A DNA stretch of 64,000 nucleotides from an uncultured Candidatus Saccharibacteria bacterium (GCA_964456475.1 CAYVZI010000004.1:7604-71603), one strand, 5' to 3'; positions 8,861 to 62,925 are shown, numbered from the stretch's first letter. Translations and numbers: made by a program. Notes: generated by a model not told the origin, from the sequence alone.

Positions 8861-8898
8861 AATTACTAAACCCTAGACCCTAAACCCTAGACCCTGTA
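8861..8898. repeat. C-rich telomere-like tandem (ctaaaccctagacc)x2.5; four CCC runs (G4 / i-motif potential on the complementary strand)
   Basis: Read directly: ctaaaccctagaccctaaaccctagaccctgtatc immediately upstream of uvrD; inverted relative of 19323-19356. Confidence 0.8.
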
Positions 8899-19374: not shown

Positions 19375-20265
19375 ATGGCGGACGAAGTAAAAAAAATAAA
19401 TGTGGTTTCTTCTTCGACAGCTCAGGCTTCTGAGGCTGTAACAAAAGCGACTATCGACGAGCAATTTTCTGGAGTAAAGCAGGAACTATTTGCGCGTTTT
19501 GAACTTCTTCCTGATGACATCAAAAAAGCGATTACCGATGACGCCTACCAGCAAAAACTTTTTACAATTGCGAAAGAACAGAAGATGACATACGAAGAAC
19601 TTGGCATGATGGAGACAGAGACTACGATGGTACTTCTTGGAATGACCAAACCAGAAGATTTTCGCGATGAACTCCAACTTGAACTCAAGAAAAATGACGC
19701 TGAAATAGATTTGCTTGTAGGAAAAATCAACGAGCAAGTCTTTGCTCCGATCCGTGCCTCACTTGAGCGAGTATACGCTGCAAAAAAAGAACCTATCGAC
19801 TATTTGCAGAAGCCACCTGAGCAAGAGAATATTAAATCACAAGAACAGAATACATTCACCTCACCCCAGCCCTCTCCTAAATTAGGAGAGGGGGTAGTCC
19901 AAACTCAGCCAGTTGCCGTAGCACCAAATACCACTCCTCGAGTTATTCCTCCTACGACACATACTCCAGCAACAATCCAATCTGCATTTGCAAAATCTGG
20001 CGTGGTTCTCACCGAAACTCCAAAACCTGTTGCACCTATTCAAACCTCACAAATGCCAAATCGTAGCGATATTCTCAAGGGAATCGAAAATCCTCCTAAG
20101 ATACCTTCACTTGGAATGGTAGCCGACAAGCTCAATAGTACTGGTGTAATCATGCCAACAAAAACCACCGATTATTCCGTTCTTAAATCGACACCTCCAG
20201 CAAATCTCCCGACCACGCCAGCATCTCCAGCAAAAAACGATCCGTATCGAGAACCAATTGGGTAA
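19375..20265 (+). CDS. Pro/Thr-rich hypothetical protein
   Basis: 296-aa ORF, low-complexity P/T-rich C-terminal half, no TM. Confidence 0.4.
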   Translation: MADEVKKINVVSSSTAQASEAVTKATIDEQFSGVKQELFARFELLPDDIKKAITDDAYQQKLFTIAKEQKMTYEELGMMETETTMVLLGMTKPEDFRDELQLELKKNDAEIDLLVGKINEQVFAPIRASLERVYAAKKEPIDYLQKPPEQENIKSQEQNTFTSPQPSPKLGEGVVQTQPVAVAPNTTPRVIPPTTHTPATIQSAFAKSGVVLTETPKPVAPIQTSQMPNRSDILKGIENPPKIPSLGMVADKLNSTGVIMPTKTTDYSVLKSTPPANLPTTPASPAKNDPYREPIG

Positions 20266-20304
20266 CAAGCTTTTAAGCTTTCTAGCTGTTTAGCTTTTAA
20301 GGAA

Positions 20305-20670
20305 ATGCTTCATTCGTATAAAGAACTTATCGTCTGGCAAAAATCTATTGATTTAGGCGTGAAAGTATATTCAATCACCGAGAATTTCCCTCGAGATGAG
20401 ATTTATGGATTAACCTCTCAAATGAGGCGAGCGGCGATTTCTATTAGTTCAAACATCGCTGAGGGTAGAACACGAGGAAGCAAGCTTGAATTTATTCACT
20501 TTCTAAATATTGCCCATGGTTCGTGTGCAGAACTGGAATCCCAGGTTTTTATTGCTAAAAAACTAACTTTTTCAAGAGGTCTTAATTTCGACGAAATCGA
20601 AAAAAATATTCAGGAGATATTATTGATGTTAAGTGTTATGATTAGTAAATTAAGAAATAATAAAGCTTAA
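20305..20670 (+). CDS. four-helix-bundle protein (TIGR02436-like, formerly '23S rRNA intervening sequence protein'; Avd-related fold)
   Basis: Motifs EIYGLTSQMRRAAISISSNIAEG ... HGSCAELESQ typical of the family; flanked by inverted low-complexity repeats agcttttaagct / agcttaaaagct (20270-20304, 20667-20704). Confidence 0.8.
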   Translation: MLHSYKELIVWQKSIDLGVKVYSITENFPRDEIYGLTSQMRRAAISISSNIAEGRTRGSKLEFIHFLNIAHGSCAELESQVFIAKKLTFSRGLNFDEIEKNIQEILLMLSVMISKLRNNKA

Positions 20671-20704
20671 AAGCTCAAAAAGCTATAAAGCTATAAAGCT
20701 TCCT

Positions 20705-21109
20705 ATGAAATTCGCCGTTCCTCAATTTATCGATGTTGAAGATAAAGTTATTGGACCATTTACGTTCAAGCAATTTGCCTATCTCGTTGGGGCAGGTGGT
20801 ATGGTGTTTTTATGCTACAAGTTTTTGCCTTGGTATCTATATGTTCCACTTGGATTTGGGTTCGGAGCTCTGGGATTCGGATTGGCATTCTGGAAAGTAA
20901 ACGAGAAGCCCCTCATCAATACAATCGAGGCCATGTTCAACTATGCAATCAATGACAAATTGTATATTTGGAAAAAAGAAAAGAAAACAAAAAAAACTTC
21001 CGAACAAAAAACTGATGAGGAGATTAAGCAAATGCAGTACATTCCAAGAATATCTGAATCAAAGCTTCATGACATTGCGTGGGGGCTGGACGTATTAGAC
21101 AAAAGATAA
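20705..21109 (+). CDS. PrgI-like small membrane protein (VirB3 analog of Gram-positive T4SS)
   Basis: N-terminal AVPQFIDVEDKVIGPFTFKQFAYL followed by two TM helices, 134 aa, located just upstream of VirB4. Confidence 0.55.
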   Translation: MKFAVPQFIDVEDKVIGPFTFKQFAYLVGAGGMVFLCYKFLPWYLYVPLGFGFGALGFGLAFWKVNEKPLINTIEAMFNYAINDKLYIWKKEKKTKKTSEQKTDEEIKQMQYIPRISESKLHDIAWGLDVLDKR

Positions 21110-21118
21110 ACCGCTTTT

Positions 21119-21473
21119 GTCATACCGGACCCCGATCCGGTATCCATTCGCATGAATCATAATTCATACTATGTATATATACTTGCAAACAAAAAACGAG
21201 GCACGCTATACATAGGTGTAACAAATAATTTAAAACGTAGAATATACGAGCATAAAAACAAGCTTGCTGATGGATTCACAAAAATCCACAAAGTGAACAA
21301 CTTTGTACATTACGAAGAAACCAACGATGTTCGTTCAGCAATTACTCGAGAAAAACAATTAAAAAATTGGCAAAGAATTTGGAAGATAGATTTAATTGAG
21401 TCAACGAACCCTGAGTGGAAAGACTTGGAGTTATAAACGGCCCGCATGGATCCCGGATCGGAGTCCGGGATGA
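21119..21473. mobile_element. mini cassette: GIY-YIG nuclease gene bounded by 26-bp palindromic inverted repeats (gtcatMccggacYYSgatccggKatcc)
   Basis: Left copy 21119-21145 and right copy 21448-21473 are reverse complements (1-2 mismatches); a third solo copy lies at 56305-56330. Confidence 0.5.
21152..21436 (+). CDS. GIY-YIG nuclease family protein (small, UPF0213-like)
   Basis: YYVYILANKKRGTLYIGVTNNLKRRIYEH is a GIY-YIG core; 94 aa. Confidence 0.8.
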   Translation: MNHNSYYVYILANKKRGTLYIGVTNNLKRRIYEHKNKLADGFTKIHKVNNFVHYEETNDVRSAITREKQLKNWQRIWKIDLIESTNPEWKDLEL

Positions 21474-21572
21474 CAACATAGGGCAAAGTCCAGGATGACC
21501 ATTTTTATTTTTATATCATTCATTCCACTAAATTCACGTAATATTATCTGCTTCTAGTGCTATAATAATTTC

Positions 21573-22232
21573 ATGGCATTAAGTGCACAAGCAACTCAAG
21601 AATTTGTTCCCATCAAAGAGGTCCGAGAGGGGACTATTGTTTTGAAGGATGGTGGACTTCGAGCAATCGTAGCGGTATCTTCCGTAAACCTAGCCCTCAA
21701 ATCGAACGATGAACAAATTGCCACAATCAACCAGTTTCAATCGTTCCTCAACTCTGTTGATTTTCCTATTCAGATTGTTGTTCAGTCGCGCAGGCTCGAC
21801 ATTAGACCCTACCTCCTCATGCTTGAAGGCAAAATGAAAGACCAGCATGAACCACTCCTTAAACTCCAAACCGCAGGATACATAAGCTTCATCCGTGAAT
21901 TTACCGAGCAAGTTGCAATCATGCGTAAATATTTTTATGTAGTAATCCCATACGATGAAGCGATACTCTCCACAAAGAAAGGTTTCCTTGGGGGATTACT
22001 TGGAAACAACAAAACCAGCGGATCTCAAACAAAAGATGAGATTGCCGCATTTGAAGAAAAAAGAACTCAGCTCGACGAACGAGTAAACGTTATTTCTTCT
22101 GGACTTGGTTCATGTGGAGCACGTACAGAAAGACTACAAACAGAAGAGGTAATCGAATTATTTTATAAGACTTTCAACCCGGGAGATATTCAGCCCGTTA
22201 TTTCGCTTGGGGATATGCCCCAAGCGAAATAA
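21573..22232 (+). CDS. hypothetical soluble protein; possibly the detached N-terminal domain of a long Gram-positive-type VirB4
   Basis: 219 aa, no TM. The pattern REGTIVLKDGGLRAIVAVSSVNLALKSNDEQIATINQFQSFLNSVDFPIQIVVQS resembles, from memory, VirB4 N-terminal regions. Its stop codon sits inside a perfect 22-bp palindrome. Confidence 0.4.
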   Translation: MALSAQATQEFVPIKEVREGTIVLKDGGLRAIVAVSSVNLALKSNDEQIATINQFQSFLNSVDFPIQIVVQSRRLDIRPYLLMLEGKMKDQHEPLLKLQTAGYISFIREFTEQVAIMRKYFYVVIPYDEAILSTKKGFLGGLLGNNKTSGSQTKDEIAAFEEKRTQLDERVNVISSGLGSCGARTERLQTEEVIELFYKTFNPGDIQPVISLGDMPQAK

Positions 22233-22246
22233 CGGGCTGTTAATTA
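22199..22246. terminator. perfect 22-bp stem hairpin (cagcccgttatttcgcttgggg-atat-ccccaagcgaaataacgggctg) overlapping the stop of the 21573 ORF
   Basis: Read directly; no T-run follows, so function may be RNA processing rather than termination. Confidence 0.45.
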
Positions 22247-22301
22247 GGAATTACGAATTAAGAATTAGGAGTGCCGCCCAAACGCAATTTAATGCATAGC
22301 G

Positions 22302-22658
22302 ATGAAAGAAAACAATATAATACAACAGAAAAGCTATGCCTTTGCCTTAAAAATTATTGTTATATATCAACATCTAACAAGGGAACAAAAAGAATTCATT
22401 CTTTCAAAACAACTGATCCGATCTGGAACTTCTGTTGGTGCAAATGTGGAAGAGGCGATTGGAGCTCAATCAAAAAATGACTTTACTGCAAAAATGAGCA
22501 TTGCCTACAAAGAAGCTCGCGAAACCCTCTATTGGATTCGATTACTCACTGACGGTAAGTTCCTACAAGACCCTCAATCTGTTACACTATTAAAAGACTG
22601 CGACGAACTCTTGCGAATACTTGGTTCTATAATTGCGAGCAGTAAAATTCGTAAGTAA
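22302..22658 (+). CDS. four-helix-bundle protein (TIGR02436-like, Avd-related)
   Basis: LIRSGTSVGANVEEAIGAQSKNDFTAKMSIAYKEARETLYWIRLL family motifs; flanked by inverted repeats aattaggaatta (22233-22270) / taattcctaatt (22660-22712). Confidence 0.8.
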   Translation: MKENNIIQQKSYAFALKIIVIYQHLTREQKEFILSKQLIRSGTSVGANVEEAIGAQSKNDFTAKMSIAYKEARETLYWIRLLTDGKFLQDPQSVTLLKDCDELLRILGSIIASSKIRK

Positions 22659-22712
22659 TACTGTTTTCTCATTTTTAATTCCTAATTCCTAATTTTTAAT
22701 TTACTCTCATCT

Positions 22713-24551
22713 ATGGCACTCTTTGGATTATTCAACAAAAAAAAGGAGAATGGTGACAATTCTCGCATTCAGGCAAACGCCATGCCTATTTTTCCTGAGC
22801 AAATATATGAGGCGGCCTCACTCGAACTCAAAGACATCATTGCTCCCTCTGCACTCAAAATCGAACCTAAGTCTCTCAATCTCGGCGACAAAATTGCTCG
22901 CACCTATTTCGTCATTTCATATCCATCGATTCTCACTGACAACTGGCTCTCTCCAATCATCAACCTCGACAAAGTATTCGATATATCAATCACCATTCAC
23001 CCTGTCGAAACTGCTCAGATTCTTCGCACCTTCCAAAAGAAAGTAGCCGAAGTCCAGAGTCAGATAATGACCCGCGAAGCAAAGGGGATGGTGCGCGACC
23101 CAATGCTCGACATGGCAAACCGAAACCTGGAAGAACTTCGAGACCGTCTGACTCAAGCACAAGAAAAGATGTTTGATGTGGGACTCTACCTTACGATCTA
23201 CGCCGACAATGAGACCGAGCTCTTCAAAATCGAGAACGAAATCAAATCAATTCTCGAGGCGAAGCTCATCTACTTCAAGCCAGCCCTCTTCCAGCAAGAT
23301 GACGGATTCAAGAGCGTTATTCCGCTCGAAGACGACCATCTTCAAATCTATCAGAAACTCAACTCGGAACCGCTTTCGAGCTTCTTCCCGTTTGTATCAT
23401 TCGACCTCACCTCAGACAAAGGAATCCTCTACGGGGTGAATCGTCACAATTCCTCACTCATCATCTTCGACCGATTCAGTCTCGACAACTACAACTCAAT
23501 CATCTTCGCCACCTCTGGTGCCGGAAAATCATACGCGACAAAACTCGAAGTGATTCGCTGTCTCATGTTTGATACCGAAGTCATCGTAATCGACCCAGAA
23601 CGTGAATATGAACGCCTCGCAGAAGCTCTCGGTGGACGCTATTTCAATATCTCACTCAACTCTGGCTCACACATCAACCCATTCGACCTTCCACTTCCTG
23701 GTGAAGGGGAGACTGGAGCAGATATATTGCGCGGAAACGTGATCAATCTCGTTGGTCTTTTCCGCATCATGCTTGGAGGACTCTCTCCAGAAGAAGATGC
23801 GCTTGTTGATCGTGCAATTATGGAAACGTACGCCATCAAAGACATCACACCGGATTCTGATTTTTCACAAATTGAACCACCACTTCTTTCCGACTTCGAA
23901 ATGGTGCTTACCGGTATGGAGGGGACAGAATCAATCGTTTCCCGCCTTTCAAAATTCACTCACGGTTCATGGGCAGGATTCATCAACCAACCTTCAAACG
24001 TAGACATCAACAAAAAATTTGTAGTCTTCTCCGTGCGCGACATGGAAGACGACCTTAAGCCAGCAGCAATGTATATCGTGACCCACTTCATTTGGAACGA
24101 GGTTCGCAAAAACATCAAAAAACGTCTTTTGGTCGTGGATGAGGCATGGTGGATGATGAAATCAGACGATACGGCATCGTTCCTCTTCTCGATTGCCAAG
24201 CGTGGACGCAAATACTTCTTGGGACTCGCTACAATCACACAAGATGTGGGCGACTTCATGAAGAGTCCGTACGGAGTGCCAATCGTTACCAACTCATCAC
24301 TCCAACTCCTCCTGAAACAATCACCATCGACAGTAGATGTGCTTCAAAAGACGTTCAACCTCACTGATGAAGAAAAATATCTCTTGCTCGAGTGTAACAA
24401 GGGGGAGGGGATCTTCTTTGCCGGACTCAAACACGTGGCAATCAAGATTATTTCTTCATACACTGAAGACCAGCTCATCACGAGCGATCCTTCACAAATT
24501 CTCGCCCTCCAAAAATCTCGTACAGCTCTCACCGAGGCAGTAAAAAGCTAG
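22713..24551 (+). CDS. virB4: VirB4-family ATPase of a Gram-positive-type T4SS (TraE/PrgJ-like)
   Basis: N-terminal LKDIIAPSALKIEPKSLNLGDKIARTYFVISYP (VirB4-family signature), Walker A ATSGAGKSYATK, Walker B LLVVDEAWWMM, 612 aa. Confidence 0.85.
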   Translation: MALFGLFNKKKENGDNSRIQANAMPIFPEQIYEAASLELKDIIAPSALKIEPKSLNLGDKIARTYFVISYPSILTDNWLSPIINLDKVFDISITIHPVETAQILRTFQKKVAEVQSQIMTREAKGMVRDPMLDMANRNLEELRDRLTQAQEKMFDVGLYLTIYADNETELFKIENEIKSILEAKLIYFKPALFQQDDGFKSVIPLEDDHLQIYQKLNSEPLSSFFPFVSFDLTSDKGILYGVNRHNSSLIIFDRFSLDNYNSIIFATSGAGKSYATKLEVIRCLMFDTEVIVIDPEREYERLAEALGGRYFNISLNSGSHINPFDLPLPGEGETGADILRGNVINLVGLFRIMLGGLSPEEDALVDRAIMETYAIKDITPDSDFSQIEPPLLSDFEMVLTGMEGTESIVSRLSKFTHGSWAGFINQPSNVDINKKFVVFSVRDMEDDLKPAAMYIVTHFIWNEVRKNIKKRLLVVDEAWWMMKSDDTASFLFSIAKRGRKYFLGLATITQDVGDFMKSPYGVPIVTNSSLQLLLKQSPSTVDVLQKTFNLTDEEKYLLLECNKGEGIFFAGLKHVAIKIISSYTEDQLITSDPSQILALQKSRTALTEAVKS

Positions 24552-34866: not shown

Positions 34867-34888
34867 AAAATAAAAAATTAAAAGAAAA

Positions 34889-35149
34889 ATGAAAAGATTA
34901 GGGGATTTTTTAGAACGATTTATTAAACTTGCTCAATCGAGTGATGATGCAAAACAAGCAGTTGTTGATTCTTTGGTAAAAAACGGGATTCGATACAGTG
35001 GGGGAATCGATACAATTACAGTTCGAGGAACTGTTGCTACACTGAAATTAAGTCCCATTCAAAAAAGTGAAATCGCAATGAAACAAAAAAAGATACTTGC
35101 GACACTAGCCGAAAATCCTATAACAAAACACATCACTATAGTGAGATAA
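34889..35149 (+). CDS. DUF721/DciA-like small protein (putative helicase-loading factor)
   Basis: 86 aa; pattern VRGTVATLKLSPIQKSEIAMKQKKILATLAEN...ITIV fits the DUF721 layout; position right after dnaN as in many genomes. Confidence 0.4.
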   Translation: MKRLGDFLERFIKLAQSSDDAKQAVVDSLVKNGIRYSGGIDTITVRGTVATLKLSPIQKSEIAMKQKKILATLAENPITKHITIVR

Positions 35150-35182
35150 AAAAACCAGCGCCTTAGGCGCTGGTTTTTAACT
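35150..35182. terminator. bidirectional rho-independent terminator (aaccagcgcc-ttag-gcgctggtt, A-run/T-run)
   Basis: Perfect 9-bp GC-rich stem flanked by aaaaa and ttttt between convergent genes. Confidence 0.6.
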
Positions 35183-35209
35183 TTATAAACTTTATAAACT
35201 TTATAACCT

Positions 35210-37729
35210 TCAACTTATAATAATGTTCACATTCGCCGTTCCTGTGGATTCTACAGTATCAGTTCCAATAATCATCAATGAGTTTATACCCACCTGGATA
35301 TTTGGAATTTGATTTGGGGTGAAGGTAAAAGTAGGGGACGTACCATTTGCTGTTCCTACATACACATTACTCAAAAAGACATCTATTTTTTTGAGTGGAA
35401 ACTTTCCATTTGATGTTACTGAAACAGTTACAAGACTGTTTTCTGAAACAATACTCCCTTCTATCGGGCTCACTATTGAAATGTGAGGCATGTTTTCTTG
35501 GGTATGTATATCATCAAATGATGTTGGTTTTTGAGCCTCTGTTATGATTGTGTATGCTGAACTGTTTACTCTCCACCAATCTTGTACAGCTGTTTCCCAG
35601 TTGTGGTACAACCCCTCATCACGGGAATTTCCAAGACTGCGAGGGTTTGATCTATTTACCCAATGGAGAATGTCGTGTACATCAGTTATTACGTATTCTT
35701 TTCTTGTTGTCTTAGGTGTAAAAGCAGTAGCGAGTTTGCCAGATATCGTATCAATAACATAACTTGTTCCACCCTGCCAGTATCCACGAAGTACTGGAGG
35801 TAGGGTTTCGTATTCTGGATCAATTTCTGGTTTTTCAAATGTTTCCAAAGGGTATGACTTTAATGCCTCAGCCATAAATTGGTGCCAAATTGGCGATCCT
35901 GTAATTCCTTTGTATAGCGGAGTATTGTCGTTTAATCCAGCCCACACACCAGCAACAAGTGACGGTGTATACCCAATTGTCCAAAGGTCTTTAAAATCGT
36001 TTGTAGTACCTGTTTTTGCCGCTACTTGCCGATCAGAGAAATAGAGAGGGGATGTTGGTCCGAATGTTAGTCGACGAGCATTGTTGTCTGAGAGAACATC
36101 ACTTATTTGCAAAGTCACATTTTTTGGAAGAACTTGAGTGGAGCTGTCTTTGTATGATTCAAGAATAGTTCCACTATTGTTTGTTACAGAAAGAATTCCA
36201 GTACTTTGACGCGCTGTTCCACCATTTGCAAAAACACTATACGCAGAAATTTGATCGACAAGTTTTACTTCTCCTCCTCCAAGAACAAGAGAAAGGCCGT
36301 ATCGACTTGCATCATTGAGAGAGGTGATACCCAGATCCTTTGCTGTTTTTATGGTATTTGGAATTCCAACCATATAAAGCATTTTCACCGCAGGAACGTT
36401 GATGGAGCTTCCGAGTGCTGTACGGATATCCATTGGGCCAGAGTACCTCTCATAATCAACTGGCATGTAACAAGCGCTCTGAGGAGCACCATTTAGGGGT
36501 CGGCTGTATGGGTCGCATCGTGTGCTAAATTCCGTAGGAACATCAAACAAGACAGTATCTGGAGTGTACCCTTGTTTGAAGGCTGTAGCATACATATATG
36601 GCTTAAATGAAGAGCCTGGTTGGCGAAGAGCTGTTGCAACATTGAAATTACCGTCGATTTCTTTGTCGAAGTAATCTCGCGATCCGACCATGACGAGAAT
36701 CTGCCCAGTTTTTGGGTCTGCCGCGACAAGTGCTGCATTGAGTTTTGCAACCGCTTGTTTGCGGGCTCCTATCGTGTAATCTGCAACAGCCTTTTCTGCA
36801 ATCTGTTGCAGATTGTAATCAAGAGTCGTAATCACTTTTAAACCTCCAGATTCAACCATATCTACACCGTATTTTTGTTCAAGATATCCCTTGATAAAAA
36901 AAACAAAATGAGGAGCTTTGATACCGTTTGATTTTTGGGGATTCCAGACCACTTGTTCTGCTTTGGCTTCTGTAAACTGTGCTTCGGTAATAAATCCAAG
37001 CTCGTATTCACGTGACAGAACCAAGTTTTTACGTTTTTCTAACTCGTCTTTGTGCGATCCGTATGGAGAGTAACGAGTCGGTGCATTTGGGATCGAAGCA
37101 AGATATGCTGACTCTGCAATCGTTAGGTCTGCTGGGTTTTTACCAAAAAATGCTTGAGATGCCTCTTGAATTCCAAAAATATTTCCACCATACGGAATTT
37201 GATTGAGATAAATTGCTAAAATATCTTCCTTTCCATATTCTCTCTCAAGTTTAAGAGCAAGAATTATTTCCTTGAGTTTTCGAATAATAGTTTTTTCGCT
37301 CGTGAGCAAAGTCTGCTTGATTACTTGCTGGGTGATAGTGGATCCTCCTTGTCCGATAACACCAGGAATAATGCGAAGGTTTACAAGAACAGCACGAAGA
37401 AATGATTTTGGACGGAAGCCTCGATGGTTGTAGAACTCTGAATCTTCAATAGCAACTGTCGCGTTTTTGATATGTACCCCCATCTCTGCGTTTGTGATAG
37501 AAGTACGTCTTGCATCAGAACCCAGGTCGTACAACACAATCTCTCCCGTGCGGTCATAAATTTTGGTGGAATTTACCTGTTTTCGCGTTTCGAAGGAAGT
37601 GAAGTCAGGGAGACGGATAAAGCTAATCCAAATGATTGCTATACCAAAAATAAAGGCTCCAACACCAAGCGTGGTAAAGAAAACATTACGAATATGATGT
37701 TTTGAAATTTTTTGTAAGTGCTGTTTCAT
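35210..37729 (-). CDS. ponA: class A penicillin-binding protein (bifunctional transglycosylase/transpeptidase, PBP1A-like) with extra C-terminal domain
   Basis: GT51 motifs EDSEFYNHRGF and RKLKE; transpeptidase SSFKP, SxN, KTGTT; N-terminal TM; start trimmed to MKQHLQKISKHH (37729) to avoid overlap with tyrS. Confidence 0.85.
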   Translation of the reverse strand: MKQHLQKISKHHIRNVFFTTLGVGAFIFGIAIIWISFIRLPDFTSFETRKQVNSTKIYDRTGEIVLYDLGSDARRTSITNAEMGVHIKNATVAIEDSEFYNHRGFRPKSFLRAVLVNLRIIPGVIGQGGSTITQQVIKQTLLTSEKTIIRKLKEIILALKLEREYGKEDILAIYLNQIPYGGNIFGIQEASQAFFGKNPADLTIAESAYLASIPNAPTRYSPYGSHKDELEKRKNLVLSREYELGFITEAQFTEAKAEQVVWNPQKSNGIKAPHFVFFIKGYLEQKYGVDMVESGGLKVITTLDYNLQQIAEKAVADYTIGARKQAVAKLNAALVAADPKTGQILVMVGSRDYFDKEIDGNFNVATALRQPGSSFKPYMYATAFKQGYTPDTVLFDVPTEFSTRCDPYSRPLNGAPQSACYMPVDYERYSGPMDIRTALGSSINVPAVKMLYMVGIPNTIKTAKDLGITSLNDASRYGLSLVLGGGEVKLVDQISAYSVFANGGTARQSTGILSVTNNSGTILESYKDSSTQVLPKNVTLQISDVLSDNNARRLTFGPTSPLYFSDRQVAAKTGTTNDFKDLWTIGYTPSLVAGVWAGLNDNTPLYKGITGSPIWHQFMAEALKSYPLETFEKPEIDPEYETLPPVLRGYWQGGTSYVIDTISGKLATAFTPKTTRKEYVITDVHDILHWVNRSNPRSLGNSRDEGLYHNWETAVQDWWRVNSSAYTIITEAQKPTSFDDIHTQENMPHISIVSPIEGSIVSENSLVTVSVTSNGKFPLKKIDVFLSNVYVGTANGTSPTFTFTPNQIPNIQVGINSLMIIGTDTVESTGTANVNIIIS

Positions 37730-39947: not shown

Positions 39948-39956
39948 AGTTCAATT

Positions 39957-40369
39957 TCTAATATCTAATTTCTAATGTCTAAGGAATTCAATTTTGACTT
40001 GCGAGCAACGGAAACAAAAATCTTTCTGAGTTCCTCTGCCTCGTTGAATAAGTTTAATAATTCGTCTTGATTTTCTTCTATCTCGATAAGAAGCTTTAAC
40101 CAGTATTCGGTTTCTTGTGCTTCTTTCTTGCAAATTCCTATCTTGTGTTCAAAATCTTTTCTTGATTCGGCACCGTCTGCCTCGTGGTAATTAGCTCCAA
40201 TACTCGTTCCGGAACGAATACATTGAAGTATACAATTTTGGTTTATAGTCGTTCTCTTTATTCTTTTAAAACACGAAAGAAGATTTTTGCTAAACGAAAA
40301 AGTTCGTTCTTTCAAATCATATTTTTTTGGATTTTCATTAGACATTAGAAATTAGAACTTAGACATTGG
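39957..40369. mobile_element. cassette: four-helix-bundle gene bounded by about 19-bp inverted repeats (tctaatttctaatgtctaa / ttagacattagaaattaga) that overlap the ruvB stop and the cassette gene start
   Basis: Left IR 39957-39984, right IR 40336-40369; related same-family copies flank ruvB on its other side (41365-41390, 41440-41475). Confidence 0.45.
39965..40345 (-). CDS. four-helix-bundle protein (TIGR02436-like, Avd-related), inserted between ruvB and ruvC
   Basis: IRSGTSIGANYHEADGAESRKDFEHKIGICKKEAQETEYWLKLL family motifs; 126 aa. Confidence 0.75.
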   Translation of the reverse strand: MSNENPKKYDLKERTFSFSKNLLSCFKRIKRTTINQNCILQCIRSGTSIGANYHEADGAESRKDFEHKIGICKKEAQETEYWLKLLIEIEENQDELLNLFNEAEELRKIFVSVARKSKLNSLDIRN

Positions 40370-41364: not shown

Positions 41365-41475
41365 ATGTTTCAATATCTAAGTTCTAATGTCTTTTTTTTA
41401 AAAAATACTATTTTTTTGTTTTTTGTGCCCGTATCTCGTTAGACATTAGAAATTAGGTCTTAGGATTTGGGTCAA
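41365..41475. repeat. empty or solo inverted-repeat pair of the ctaatgtctaa family enclosing only about 50 bp
   Basis: caatatctaagttctaatgtct (41365-41390) and gttagacattagaaattaggtcttagg (41440-41475) in inverted orientation. Confidence 0.4.
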
Positions 41476-41512: not shown

Positions 41513-41637
41513 AGTTGTAATTCAGTTAATACCCACTTTATGCACAGGGTATACACACAGTATACCACTTTCACGAGATGTGCATTTTTTTATTGGTTGT
41601 ACTATATAACTGAAGCTAATTGTGCGAATTAATAAAG

Positions 41638-41801
41638 GCATAAATCTCTAAGTGATCAGGTTCTCGGACCGTATAGGATCTCGTAAAGGGCGTTTTGGCC
41701 CCCAGGCTCGTTTCTGGGACCGCTGCAGCCACCCTCCGCGGCCTCCTTACTTTTGACACCCAGTTGTTGAAAGGATTGTTTAGAGATTTATGCTTTTTTT
41801 T
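41638..41801 (+). ncRNA. candidate structured small RNA (about 165 nt) closed by a 14-bp terminal stem and a T-run; GC-rich core in an AT-rich spacer
   Basis: gcataaatctctaa (41638-41651) pairs perfectly with ttagagatttatgc (41780-41793) followed by tttttttt; enclosed core about 60% GC; contains a GCAGCCA (SRP-like) motif but identity is unresolved. Confidence 0.25.
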
Positions 41802-41922
41802 GTTGGCTGTTTAGGTATATACTTTATTTGAACTGTTCTTTTTCCTACGCATTTGAATAGTTTGACTTTTCTGGCGCTCGACTTCTGTCGGGCGTTTTTT
41901 TGTTTGACACGATTGTGAAGTA

Positions 41923-42420
41923 TTGTTAATCTTCGAACAAAACAACACTCTTATGGCAACAAATCACAGAGATTCGGGAACTGATGTGCCATGCTGGCAT
42001 ATCCCTAAAGACAATACGTTTGTAGTAAATATTTCAAAAAGCGATACACGCATATTCAATAATACATCTGTATGGATTGTTATTACTTCAATAAAAAATC
42101 AAAAGTTTCGGCTGGGTTGGAAAAAAACAACACCACACGGAACTCTTGAAGGGAATATTCTTCTCTCCGAAGATCAATTGAAAGCCGCATTCGGGGTTTG
42201 TAACCAGGAAGAAATGGGACAAATGAAGAATTTGGACAGGTGCACAACAATGATGAGTGAGTATGCTGCGGATATTTGCTGCACTGGCCGTTTTTTGAGA
42301 TATACAAACTTTCTCAACATTCCAGCTCCTTCAACAAGATTTGCAAACGATCCAAATATTTCCATTTTGATTACTGACGAAATAAAGGAAGCAATACGGA
42401 GTTTGGTTGAAAGAAAATAA
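41923..42420 (+). CDS. hypothetical Cys-containing protein
   Basis: 165-aa ORF after the non-coding region; followed by a terminator. Confidence 0.4.
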   Translation: MLIFEQNNTLMATNHRDSGTDVPCWHIPKDNTFVVNISKSDTRIFNNTSVWIVITSIKNQKFRLGWKKTTPHGTLEGNILLSEDQLKAAFGVCNQEEMGQMKNLDRCTTMMSEYAADICCTGRFLRYTNFLNIPAPSTRFANDPNISILITDEIKEAIRSLVERK

Positions 42421-48316: not shown

Positions 48317-48351
48317 CTAGAAAGTAGAAAATAGTTAGTAGAAAGTAGAAC
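48317..48351. repeat. stop-codon-rich low-complexity element (ctagaaagtagaaaatagttagtagaaagtagaac); inverted partner at 61614-61649
   Basis: Shares the 16-mer tactaactattttcta (as reverse complement) with 61614-61649. Confidence 0.6.
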
Positions 48352-52472: not shown

Positions 52473-52952
52473 ATGGAATCAACTCAATCAGAAGGGAGAG
52501 CAGGGCTTTCGGTGCATCAGATCCTGGCCCAGGGATACCTCATTTATTTAGCGGCTATTGTCGTGGGTTTTGGGGTGAGCTACATCTGGCCAGAAAACAT
52601 CTCTATCCCATACGAAGGGTCGTGGGGAATGCTTGGAATTGTCCTCGGAACTCTCCTTATATATTGGGCACAACACGCTTCAGGTAGAACTTCTCCGCTT
52701 CGTAGTGGACAAGTTATTGAACCGCACCATTTTTGTGTGGGTCCTTACAAATGGACACGCAGCCCAACGCAATACGGACTTTTTCTCATGTCACTCGGGC
52801 TTGCACTTCTCTATGGCTCTCTCTATATGGTGATTGGCACGGTGATTGCACTTCTCGTTGGGAAATTCGTAATCATCAAAGCTGAAGAAAAGAAATTGGC
52901 GGAAAAATATGGACAGCCATATTTGGATTATCAGAAAGAAGTAAAATTTTAG
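52473..52952 (+). CDS. isoprenylcysteine carboxyl methyltransferase (ICMT/PEMT) family membrane protein
   Basis: 4 TM helices, C-terminal GPYKWTRSPTQYG ... E motif characteristic of the ICMT family. Confidence 0.55.
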   Translation: MESTQSEGRAGLSVHQILAQGYLIYLAAIVVGFGVSYIWPENISIPYEGSWGMLGIVLGTLLIYWAQHASGRTSPLRSGQVIEPHHFCVGPYKWTRSPTQYGLFLMSLGLALLYGSLYMVIGTVIALLVGKFVIIKAEEKKLAEKYGQPYLDYQKEVKF

Positions 52953-53036
52953 GGGATAGGGTACAGGGTTTAGGGTATAGAAATTCCTAACCCCTAACCC
53001 CTAACCCCTAACCCCTAACCCCTAACCCCTAACCCC
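52951..53036. repeat. G-quadruplex-type G-rich tract (aggggatagggtacagggtttagggtatag) followed by perfect (CCCCTAA)x7 microsatellite
   Basis: Read directly: cctaa(cccctaa)6cccct at about 52986-53036; imperfectly complementary to the preceding G-rich tract and to 53771-53800. Confidence 0.9.
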
Positions 53037-53041
53037 TCGCA

Positions 53042-53770
53042 ATGCTCACAGTCTTAGTTGGAAATGATAGTGCAAAAAGAAAGAAGCGCTTCGAAGCGCT
53101 TCTTTTGCCGTTTCAAAAAAACGGGACGGATGTACAGTCATTCACTGATGTGAATTTTGATCCGAATGTGTTTCGAACTCTTGCGGAAAGTATGTCGCTC
53201 TTTGGCGGAGTAAGTGTCGTGACACTTACCGGTATTTGCGACATTGCAGAACTTCGTGATGAATTTGAAAAAATAATTCCAATACTATCTGAATCACCGA
53301 ATCAATTCATCATTTGCGAAAATAGTTTTCTCGCACCATTTTTGCAAAAAGTACAAAAGAAGGGTGGTGTTGTAGAAAAATTTGAACTCGCTGAAAAAAT
53401 AAAAAAAGAAGAAGCGTTCAATTCATTTCTTTTGACGGATGCGTTTTCTGCGCGAACACGATCGAGTGTATGGGGACTTTATCGTAAAGCAATTGAACTC
53501 GGAGTGGAACCACGCGAACTTGCCGGCAAACTTTTTTGGGCGACAAAAAATATGCTGATCGCAAAAAAAACAAATGGAGCGGGGGAGAGTGGAATCAATC
53601 CTTTTGTGTATCAGAAAGCGAAAACAGGAAGTAAAAATTTTTCTGATGCCGAGCTCGAAAAAATCGCATTTGATCTCACAACACTCTTTCATGAATCAAT
53701 GCTTTCTGGAATTGAATTCGAACCAGCACTTGAAGCGTTACTTTTGAGATCGTTGGAAAAAACTAAGTAA
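53042..53770 (+). CDS. holA: DNA polymerase III delta subunit (HolA)-like
   Basis: 242 aa; N-terminal LTVLVGND...; C-terminal DAFSARTRSSVWGLYRKAIELGVEPRELAGKLFWATKNMLIAKK resembles HolA domain III. Confidence 0.5.
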   Translation: MLTVLVGNDSAKRKKRFEALLLPFQKNGTDVQSFTDVNFDPNVFRTLAESMSLFGGVSVVTLTGICDIAELRDEFEKIIPILSESPNQFIICENSFLAPFLQKVQKKGGVVEKFELAEKIKKEEAFNSFLLTDAFSARTRSSVWGLYRKAIELGVEPRELAGKLFWATKNMLIAKKTNGAGESGINPFVYQKAKTGSKNFSDAELEKIAFDLTTLFHESMLSGIEFEPALEALLLRSLEKTK

Positions 53771-53800
53771 GGGTTTAGGTGATAGGGGTTAGGGTCTAGT
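53771..53800. repeat. G-rich telomere-like element (gggtttaggtgataggggttagggtctag), inverted relative of the C-rich repeat upstream of holA
   Basis: Read directly; together with 52986-53036 it brackets holA. Confidence 0.7.
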
Positions 53801-54227
53801 TAATACGAATCACAGTTCAAAACACATTTTTATTTTTTTTTGTTATAAAAAAAAGAGCCTGGAATTTATTTTTGAATTTTTCAAAAACAAGTTCCAGGCT
53901 CTTTAGATATTCGCACTAGCCTTTAGTTGGAGTTATTAACTCCGGTTTATTTTAGAATGTACCGTACAAAGAGTAAGGAGAAAAATTTTCAAAAGTTTTA
54001 ATGGGTGAGTCGATAGCCACTTACTTCTATCTTTCATACCATTATCTCTAATAGAACAAAATGTTCCTAAACAATTGAAATCTCTTTGCGAAATGCAGAA
54101 GCAATAGTTTGTATAAAACCCTAAGTGGGTAACTTCACAATTGCAACAACCTGCTATCTCTATTTGTAATTAGTATACCTCGAATTTTGGAGACAAAAGG
54201 GGATATTAGAAGATTCTTGGGGATAAC

Positions 54228-62501: not shown

Positions 62502-62573
62502 GATTCTGTCGTTCAACGGATAGGACACTCCCCTGCGAAGGGAGAAATGCAGGTTCGATTCCTGCCAGAATCA
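62502..62573 (+). tRNA. tRNA-Arg with anticodon GCG (unusual for bacteria)
   Basis: Hand-folded: acceptor gattctg/cagaatc, D-arm gttc..ggac, anticodon stem ctccc/gggag with loop cTGCGaa, T-arm gcagg-ttcgatt-cctgc. Confidence 0.7.
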
Positions 62574-62581
62574 CAAAATAC

Positions 62582-62607
62582 AAAACAGCCCCACCCGGGG
62601 CTGTTTT
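62582..62607 (+). terminator. rho-independent terminator after tRNA-Arg (aaaacagcccc-accc-ggggctgtttt)
   Basis: Perfect stem + T-run. Confidence 0.6.
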
Positions 62608-62615
62608 GTATTTTG

Positions 62616-62925
62616 TGATTCTGGAGCGACTGAACTGCTCATTCAGCAGGATGACTCTTGGAGGAAGTCGCGGCAGGAATCGAAAGCCGGAGCACGACGG
62701 TGCGAGGCGGGGTCGCGAACTTTTTCAGCAGAAAAAGATTCGTGACCGATACGTGTACCCACTTCCTGCCAGGAATCGAAAAGGTTCTCCGTTATATTTT
62801 GAAAATTCATTTTCAAAATATCGGAAACCTGTACTGACCCAGTAGGGGTCGATAAGGCTACTGCCGGTCCTGCCAAAGTTGTTATGTAATGACCGATAAG
62901 CGTACTCGCGATCCTGCCAGTATCG
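62616..62925. repeat. array of tRNA-Arg-derived fragments: direct acceptor copy (gattctg), inverted T-arm copy (ggcaggaatcgaaagcc) and three degenerate direct copies of the tRNA 3' end (tcctgccag...), att-site-like
   Basis: cctgccag recurs at about 62765, 62868 and 62913 in addition to the genuine tRNA 3' end at 62561; 15-mer ttttcagcagaaaaa shared with the tRNA-Lys downstream region. Confidence 0.45.

Follow-up and report, generated by a model that had tools for sequence, protein, structure and literature searches.

A two-gene VirB4 and an optional four-helix-bundle cassette in its spacer, in a type IV secretion-like operon of Paceibacteria

A stretch of 64,000 nucleotides (nt) from an uncultured bacterium deposited as Candidatus Saccharibacteria (GCA_964456475.1, CAYVZI010000004.1:7604-71603), here called the window, carries two open reading frames (ORFs) that together correspond to the ATPase VirB4; every count for the window refers to this stretch and not to the whole genome. 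The first ORF encodes 219 amino acids (aa) and the second 612 aa. Between the stop codon of the first and the start codon of the second lie 480 nt, occupied by a cassette: a gene for a 118-aa four-helix-bundle (4HB) protein bracketed by inverted heptamer arrays. All three ORFs are on the + strand. An earlier note on this DNA had offered two alternatives, a VirB4 that is naturally in two pieces or a VirB4 gene bisected by a selfish element resembling the intervening sequences (IVSs) of rRNA. The two outer ORFs very probably represent two ancestral, separately translated genes that match one long VirB4, with the cassette as a recent insert in the spacer between them.

The 612-aa protein is identified from its sequence as a VirB4 ATPase. 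The VirB4 signature LKDIIAP...ARTYFVISYP, already recognized in the earlier note together with the ATPase, spans residues 39-71; the protein also has a Walker A motif, GAGKS. The protein passes the NCBIfam cut-off of 325 bits for NF045971, the CD1110 VirB4 family (377.6 bits, E-value 1.2e-112, positions 181-733 of 752). Residues 235-590 align to the solved C-terminal ATPase domain of VirB4 (PDB 4ag5) with the E-value 1e-39, and TrwK is matched with the E-value 1e-4. In NF045975, the 894-position VirB4_plasma profile for VirB4 of Mycoplasma integrative and conjugative elements, positions 292-891 are covered.

Positions 102-232 of the same profile are matched by the 219-aa protein (E-value 6e-11), which is homologous to the N-terminal part of long VirB4 proteins. 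In BLASTP, the 219-aa ORF corresponds to residues 26-198 (E-value 1e-14), and the 612-aa ORF to residues 236-829 (E-value 3e-65), of one 830-aa VirB4 from Bacillus cereus. Both ORFs are thus colinear with a single protein, and the sum given in the earlier note, 219 + 612 = 831 aa, holds. A tblastn search of plasmids with the 219-aa protein returned 75 records, and the match on B. cereus pJ62_2 is the N-terminus of the 830-aa DUF87/VirB4 protein. The TrsD/TraD family NF041427 is matched at positions 13-142 of 201 with the E-value 7.2e-8. The score of 32.5 bits misses the cut-off of 200 bits, and the protein is therefore called a homologue of TrsD/TraD rather than a member; as expected for TrsD/TraD, it is encoded by a small gene directly upstream of a VirB4 ATPase gene. 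There is also a weak match to positions 4-150 of the VirB4 model TIGR00929.

No family was found for the 219-aa protein in a Pfam scan, where the copy of Pfam used presumably did not include the PF26593 model, and a sequence search against PDB gave nothing useful. PF26593 (TraC-like) is the precomputed Pfam annotation of an identical protein, P0001, and of the best 120 homologues listed. The structure-based search of PDB with Foldseek, using the AlphaFold model, returned TrwK/VirB4 proteins at all of the top 12 positions, with the probability up to 0.99. The profiles, the structure search and the B. cereus alignment agree with the earlier proposal that this ORF resembles the N-terminal extension of long VirB4s. 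Some points weigh against the assignment: the scores with VirB4 family models are, as with NF041427, far under the curated cut-offs, the AlphaFold model is of moderate quality (predicted local distance difference test score 67.5), and the template modelling scores of the Foldseek matches are only 0.35-0.43, also moderate.

Homologues of the 219-aa protein number 6260, and the best 120 of these are all stand-alone proteins of 137-232 aa. Compared with 25 homologues, its C-terminus is natural and full-length. Matches were also obtained by tblastn on haloarchaeal plasmids of Haladaptatus (E-value 2e-6) and Haloprofundus (2e-3), and the TraC-like domain may extend to conjugation-like systems of archaea.

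The operon was compared among 80 representative genomes, named Nomurabacteria, Paceibacterota or Patescibacteria, and other contigs, giving 87 loci (loci and contigs are referred to by L numbers). Two separate ORFs, each with its own stop and start codon, are present in 87 of 87 loci. The spacer between the TraC-like and VirB4 genes is shorter than 40 nt in 65 of them, most commonly 1-7 nt, which suggests translational coupling, and is 53 nt or longer in the other 22. L007, the closest relative (219-aa protein 99% identical, DNA about 88-90%), lacks a 4HB gene, and its two VirB4 genes are about 30 nt apart. The spacer is 3 nt in L096 and L097 (219-aa protein 92% identical), 1 nt in L098 (91%) and 4 nt in L002 (84%). 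The cassette is missing at this site, yet the gene is still split, in L007, L096, L097, L002 and at least 60 others. The gene order p296-PrgI-TraC-like-VirB4-p336 is conserved in about 80 and up to all 87 loci. Matches were obtained in 573 genome stretches, and the two-gene VirB4 is the norm across hundreds of Patescibacteria genomes. Among 150 representatives of the homologues, clustered at 50%, all are short except P0235, a true fusion of 898 aa in which a Pro/Ala-rich linker of about 110 aa joins the TraC-like and VirB4 parts. This protein and the 830-aa protein of pJ62_2 are the fused forms, while cassette-free split pairs are found on Firmicutes plasmids of Pontibacillus (274 + 621 aa) and Thermoanaerobacterium (259 + 646 aa). 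In L030 (4647-6495), VirB4 itself consists of two overlapping ORFs, perhaps through a frameshift or a sequencing error, or because it is a pseudogene.

An uninterrupted VirB4 was sought in the orthologous loci, and the relatives had the same two genes without the cassette instead. Of the two earlier alternatives, the naturally two-piece VirB4 is thus upheld, and bisection by a selfish element is refuted. The colinearity with long VirB4s and the position of the cassette exactly at the junction are what would be expected if an IVS-like element had split a once-continuous gene of about 831 aa, but this is hardly credible given the two ORFs at all 87 loci, mostly without an insert, the split in cassette-free L007, the full-length C-terminus of the 219-aa protein and the cassette-free split forms of Firmicutes. 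No intact single gene was found in close relatives lacking the element, and splitting by a mobile element was rejected on this ground. The split is older than the cassette because cassette-free relatives and Firmicutes plasmids are split as well; it is an old fusion/fission polymorphism of VirB4, and the insertion of the cassette came later.

The context is that of a type IV secretion system (T4SS). A PrgI gene lies upstream of both VirB4 pieces, a 595-aa ORF downstream has a weak T4SS_pilin match, and an 888-aa ORF is putatively VirB6-like. The locus is interpreted as a conserved chromosomal T4SS-like operon of Paceibacteria with putative VirB6-like, p296, PrgI/VirB3-like, TraC-like, VirB4, p336 and pilin-like genes.

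The arrangement is already known in kind and is ordinary. In the Gram-positive conjugation modules of pSK41/pGO1 and pIP501, a TrsD/TraD protein is encoded ahead of the VirB4 ATPase TrsE/TraE, as two genes. As in these modules and the Pontibacillus and Thermoanaerobacterium plasmids, where the genes abut or overlap, a VirB4 N-terminus homologue of about 200-270 aa precedes a VirB4 of about 610-650 aa. The locus differs from them in its distant similarity (32.5 against 200 bits), in being a chromosomal operon of Patescibacteria and not a plasmid, and in that the pair is kept apart by the 480-nt spacer with its cassette. The order of segments is also that of the long single-chain VirB4s of Firmicutes and Mollicutes (pJ62_2, 830-aa DUF87; CD1110, NF045971; Mbov_0397, NF045975), in which they form one polypeptide, whereas here they form two.

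Comparison with L007 by BLASTN delimits an insert of about 456 bp, at about 22236-22691. Its 118-aa product matches 23S_rRNA_IVP (PF05635, E-value 9.5e-27), TIGR02436 (1.6e-30) and PDB 2rld (2.9e-28). The arms are 89% complementary over 27 nt each (22242-22268 and 22668-22694) and 399 nt apart, in agreement with the earlier description of a four-helix-bundle gene between inverted repeats in a 480-bp unit. The heptamer pattern occurs five times in the window, always in these two arms, against 0.02 expected from shuffled sequences. The predicted RNA fold of 22185-22712 includes the hairpin at the 219-aa stop codon and a closing stem formed by the arms, in both the minimum free energy and the centroid structure (z = -5.7 against shuffles). 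The cassette appears to be a recent, optional insert in the TraC-like/VirB4 spacer of this genome, and to belong to a widespread class that combines a 4HB gene with inverted heptamer arrays specific to the 4HB subfamily. The subfamilies in the window are designated hb118, hb121 and hb126 after the lengths of their members (Table 1).

Table 1. Features of the two-gene VirB4 locus, followed by the neighbouring gene and the other cassettes of the window
Feature	Position	Strand	Evidence or detail
219-aa VirB4 N-terminal-domain protein (TraC-like; distant TrsD/TraD homologue)	21573-22232	+	NCBIfam, Foldseek, BLASTP, PF26593 annotation of identical protein
Hairpin over last codons and TAA of 219-aa gene: perfect 22-bp stem, 5-nt loop	22191-22239	+	Arms 22191-22212 / 22218-22239, 100% complementary
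Left arm, tandem heptamers AATTAGG AATTACG AATTAAG AATTAGG	22242-22268	+	Tandem Repeats Finder (TRF), 22242-22267, 3.7 copies
118-aa four-helix-bundle gene (hb118)	22302-22658	+	PF05635 / TIGR02436
Right arm, inverted heptamers (TAATTCC TAATTCC TAATTTT ...), ending 10 nt before VirB4 ATG	22665-22702	+	TRF, 5.4 copies
612-aa VirB4 core (second half of N-terminal domain and P-loop ATPase; CD1110-type short VirB4)	22713-24551	+	NF045971, 4ag5, Pfam P-loop_TraG, AAA_10, DUF87
PrgI-family (VirB3-like) membrane protein, preceding both VirB4 pieces	20705-21109	+	Pfam PrgI PF12666, E-value 1.8e-7
Second cassette: 121-aa 4HB gene (hb121) 20305-20670; inverted AAGCTTTT-type 8-mer arrays 20267-20301 / 20662-20701	20267-20701	+	
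Third cassette: 94-aa GIY-YIG nuclease gene 21152-21436; 34-nt inverted repeats, 88% complementary	21117-21476	+	Fold z = -6.8
Fourth cassette: 126-aa 4HB gene (hb126) 39965-40345, between ruvC and ruvB; 35-nt inverted TCTAAT-type heptamer arrays	39952-40368	-	

Rfam models at E-values up to 1 gave no intron or other family in 20000-23000, the only match being a spurious miRNA on the hairpin, and a group I or group II intron was rejected accordingly. Across the window, Rfam revealed two tRNAs only and no rRNA gene, and the PADLOC defence-system models had no meaningful matches.

In Coxiella burnetii, RNase III cuts a 428-nt IVS that has inverted-repeat borders and codes for the 4HB protein S23p (PMC4990558); S23p is a homopentamer (cited in PMC4990558). 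Like the ORF-bearing 23S rRNA IVSs of C. burnetii and Leptospira, the cassette falls in the range of about 430-480 nt, carries a PF05635 ORF, has borders that form a closing stem and occurs sporadically between strains. It differs in lying in the spacer of a protein-coding operon and not inside a 23S rRNA helix, and in having tandem heptamer arrays as arms. The cassette thus resembles an rRNA IVS in every tested respect but its location, and the earlier label IVS-like is a fair one for its ORF, inverted repeats, closing stem and size; excision by RNase III is putative here. In the Candidate Phyla Radiation (CPR), rRNA genes have non-intron insertions carrying 23S_rRNA_IVP and GIY-YIG ORFs (PMC11270868). 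These share with the window cassettes both cargo families, the radiation and the non-intron nature, but they lie within 16S and 23S genes, and flanking heptamer arrays are not described for them (PMC11270868), whereas the window cassettes lie between protein-coding genes.

The 219-aa gene ends in a hairpin, and the TAA stop codon (22230-22232) is located in its right arm, which bears out the earlier statement that the stop codon lies inside a perfect 22-bp palindrome. This arm repeats the 3' coding sequence of the gene in inverted orientation. L007 has the hairpin, with a 15-bp stem and one mismatch, and no cassette; the hairpin is therefore not part of the cassette, and its role as a cassette component was ruled out. 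In L001 it is kept by a compensatory change, in which the synonymous substitution of GTT by GTC is paired with a change of the stop codon from TAA to TGA, three sequences being too few for a firm claim of covariation. The hairpin is missing in L002, L096 and L098, where the genes abut tightly, and analogous hairpins lie across the stop codon in L082 and L084. The cassettes of the window and of L001 are different, and both start a few bases at most from the hairpin's 3' end. Elsewhere in the window, a perfect hairpin with 28-bp arms (62565-62624) has a left arm that overlaps the final 9 nt of the tRNA gene at 62502-62573, and the same layout of an inverted copy of the gene's 3' end is seen there.

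The expression of the cassette can be outlined as follows. Its orientation is that of the operon, and no promoter-like site was found inside it on the + strand with an E. coli-type consensus; on these two grounds the cassette would be transcribed together with the operon. In the RNA, base pairing of the arms may then give a stem of about 27-35 bp, a plausible substrate for RNase III. Cleavage would free the 4HB message and part the upstream from the downstream messages, and the 22-bp hairpin would cap the 3' end of the upstream message. RNase III processing of the cassette RNA is proposed by analogy with the rRNA IVSs, and several points argue against taking it as established. The E. coli-type consensus may miss promoters of Patescibacteria. 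Among the stem mismatches, 29 are of the G.U type and 40 of the A.C type in a set that includes chance repeats; with no sense-strand excess of G.U, the mismatches give no sign of selection on the arms specifically as sense RNA. A model in which any stem will do for RNase III does not need the conservation of AATTAGG between phyla or the periodicity of the arms, which point to sequence-specific recognition. Both features would suit a multimeric protein as the recognizing partner, and such recognition is compatible with RNA processing.

The window has four cassettes, three with a 4HB gene and one with a GIY-YIG gene, and their four arm sequences are all different. The hb121 cassette, in the p296/PrgI spacer, is present in the window and L097 and missing in L007 and L096. 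L007 has neither of the operon 4HB cassettes of the window and shares the GIY-YIG cassette. L096 and L097 have identical TraC-like proteins; the DNA downstream of the p296/PrgI spacer is 98.7% identical, and that upstream of it is 92.8% identical. A terminator-like hairpin and a promoter-like box (TGATATAAT) are present in the empty allele (L096 2440-2560) and entirely missing from the cassette allele (L097 2050-2560). This replacement of the whole spacer, together with the drop in identity, suggests allele exchange by recombination. At the TraC-like/VirB4 site, L001 (219-aa protein 87% identical) has another 4HB gene, of 128 aa, with perfect 30-nt AATGACC-type arms.

Among the operon loci, the median scores of flanking inverted repeats are 12.5-17 for cassette genes and 7 for neighbouring ordinary genes. 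The cassettes are co-oriented with the operon in 18 of 19 cases, and the exception adjoins an inverted PrgI gene. In L001 (4261-4920) and L079 (3165-3602), PrgI runs opposite to the rest of the operon, and the GIY-YIG cassette of L001 is inverted along with it; an explanation would be recombination between inverted arrays on either side. Inverted arrays without a gene, or 110-130-nt elements with TCCCGTTAGAAG at their termini, occupy many of the 22 long spacers. Such ORF-less elements are in the TraC-like/VirB4 spacer of L004 (5641-5778), L025, L037 and L041, and their TCCCGTTAGAAG termini are common to GIY-YIG cassettes at two spacers (L082 3179-3470; L086 4655-4945). The relation of the ORF-less elements to the GIY-YIG cassettes looks like that of a miniature to a full-length element.

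The arm motif follows the 4HB subfamily. The closest homologues of hb118 (69-74% identity) are in the same operon of other Paceibacteria, in other spacers, and AATTAnn / nnTAATT arrays flank all of them. Homologues with 64-65% identity were found on two contigs from outside the CPR, at a PGM-aminotransferase site and an imuB-like-dnaE2 site, with AATTAGG/AATTACG arrays. Arms of the AATTAnn type are present at all 10 of the 10 hb118 copies examined, with protein identity down to 50%. The arms of the hb121 subfamily are of the AGCT type, and they change with declining protein identity, down to 31-54%. Another 22 4HB loci, an independent sample from IMG/VR contigs, were scored for flanking arms; the arm score is at least 20 in 11, 11-13 in 5 and 8 or less in 6, and the motifs are diverse (CAATTGA, GAGTAAT, AGAAAAT, TAATTCG, GGATTGC and others). 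Further 4HB genes, belonging to several phyla, have inverted heptamer arrays specific to their subfamily. Searches of the literature for the array sequences AATTAGG and AATTACG, and for 4HB genes with repeats, found no description, and no paper linking 4HB subfamilies to inverted heptamer arrays was found; the nearest are the paired arrays of Geobacter (PMC2700814).

In the reverse direction the association is weaker. Metagenomes were scanned with the query (AATTAGG)3, and 3 of 120 arrays are within 120 nt of an hb118-type 4HB gene. The presence of an array is therefore no sure sign of the gene, and arrays are more numerous than genes. The ORFs downstream of the arrays form no recurrent family, and a few of the matches are eukaryotic telomere-like repeats.

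On L102 (2586-3372), from a bacterium outside the CPR, two tandem 4HB genes lie between imuB-like (IMS) and dnaE2 genes in a LexA-linked mutagenesis cassette, and the second is flanked by AATTAGG / CGTAATT arrays. On the unrelated metagenome contigs L104, L109 and L127 (58-64% G+C), GAATGCCGCCCA or GAATGTCGCCCA comes after the (AATTAGG)n arrays, resembling AGGAGTGCCGCCCAAACGC just past the left arm in the window (22263-22283). In L104 and L132 the array is paired with a second, different heptamer array (ATTTCGG). In the window, TCTAAT-type copies upstream of ruvB (41371-41469) leave ruvB itself bracketed by inverted arrays. At 52951-53037, a perfect telomere-like array of 7.4 CCTAACC units forms a local hairpin with TAGGG-type units just upstream; it has an inverted partner (53767-53810) downstream of a 242-aa holA-like gene with a weak DNA_pol3_delta_C match. 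Solitary intergenic arrays of tandem 7-9-mers (CTAAACC, AAAATGA, AACTTTATA and TAGAAAG), with no 4HB gene near, are at 8866-8895, 34867-34897, 35179-35210 and 48318-48350. A G+C-rich segment (41624-41807) bounded by a 28-nt inverted repeat is situated in the long spacer upstream of the ORF 41923-42420 and has no Rfam match.

One explanation is that the pentameric 4HB protein recognizes by their sequence, as DNA or as RNA, the arrays that bracket its gene. The unit would recognize itself, and RNase III would be secondary or irrelevant. This is regarded as a tentative possibility. The constant pairing of hb118, at 50-100% identity, with AATTAnn arrays, other phyla included, speaks for it, as do the change of the hb121 arrays with protein divergence and the different motifs of other subfamilies. 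The arrays have about 4-6 units, and solved homologues are pentameric (2rld, 5 chains). No nucleic-acid-binding motif was identified in the 4HB protein, the putative binding partner, and co-descent of the gene and its flanks could account for part of the association. By the same explanation, the gene-less arrays elsewhere in operon spacers might be dispersed sites of the 4HB protein. Gene-less arrays of one motif fill several spacers of a single genome in L056, L064 and L086, while most AATTAGG arrays are, as counted above, without a nearby cognate gene.

Paired arrays, a further point in favour of binding, are also described from Geobacter metallireducens in a report of 2009, where tandem hepta- and octanucleotide arrays of operon spacers are listed as global regulator binding sites of classes 1-3 and are proposed to bind an unknown regulator (PMC2700814). 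The arrays described there consist of 3-5 tandem units of 7-9 nt in opposite-strand pairs, in spacers such as proB-proA and moaA-mosC, and are comparable to the gene-less arrays in L029, L057, L082 and L084. Their motifs are other ones, and the main text and available supplements of PMC2700814 contain no link to 4HB genes.

A broader proposal is that PF05635 proteins and the inverted arrays bracketing their genes are cognate, self-recognizing units that colonise operon spacers and rRNA helices across phyla and leave gene-less arrays behind; it is speculative and rated as rather improbable. A partial analogue is known. REP (repetitive extragenic palindromic) sequences bracket the genes of RAYT (REP-associated tyrosine) transposases as short inverted repeats, are also dispersed between genes, and have types that track the protein subfamily. 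The likeness is an analogy only: a 4HB gene is bracketed by a dispersed repeat whose type tracks the subfamily, but no catalytic fold is known for the 4HB protein, the repeats are tandem heptamer arrays and not single palindromes, and dispersal within one genome is seen here only over a few kb.

It is unlikely that the cassette is a non-autonomous DNA transposon similar to a miniature inverted-repeat transposable element, with arms serving as terminal inverted repeats for a transposase or nuclease encoded elsewhere, such as the GIY-YIG protein. Such an element would fit the difference in cassette presence between near-identical strains, the GIY-YIG cassettes with the same termini (TCCCGTTAGAGAT) at two different spacers (L082 and L086), the TCCCGTTAGAAG termini common to the ORF-less elements of L004, L025, L037 and L041, and the conservation of the arm motif across phyla. 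However, no transposase is present in or beside the cassettes, and no target-site duplication was seen by eye at the filled and empty junctions of the window, L007 and L001, where the spacers are strongly diverged. The same terminal repeats were not found in several copies, as AATTAGG arrays are only at this cassette within the window and each cassette of the window has arms of its own. Exchange of alleles through homologous recombination fits the spacer replacement between L096 and L097 better than transposition does.

That the 4HB gene is more than a passenger, serving the T4SS-like operon as a functional accessory or regulator, is far less probable still. The three closest 118-aa homologues from an unbiased look-up, with 70-74% identity, are indeed all in this operon of other Paceibacteria, in three different spacers. 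Any 4HB gene is, however, present in only about 15% of the operon loci, and strains whose neighbouring proteins are identical or 99% identical differ in its presence. The window itself has the hb126 cassette between ruvC and ruvB. A function specific to the operon, suggested by the closest homologues, is weakened by the 64-65% identical ones in unrelated operons (PGM/aminotransferase and imuB/dnaE2).

The two-gene VirB4 is tidy rather than surprising. It bears on annotation, in which the 219-aa genes are mostly labelled hypothetical, and the detached domain is relevant to models of VirB4 docking onto VirB3. The more useful lead is the cassette rather than the split, and the link between 4HB subfamily and arrays is the part worth following. 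The role of the IVS protein family and the source of rRNA intervening sequences have, to our knowledge, been open questions since the early 1990s. Here a unit of the IVS type is found in mRNA operons, polymorphic between near-identical strains, with arms that track the protein subfamily across phyla. The label of selfish element thereby becomes testable through binding of the protein to its array, cleavage by RNase III and turnover of alleles in populations. If the proposal of cognate units is true, it would explain the origin of 23S rRNA intervening sequences, and also the paired heptamer arrays in genomes such as that of Geobacter.

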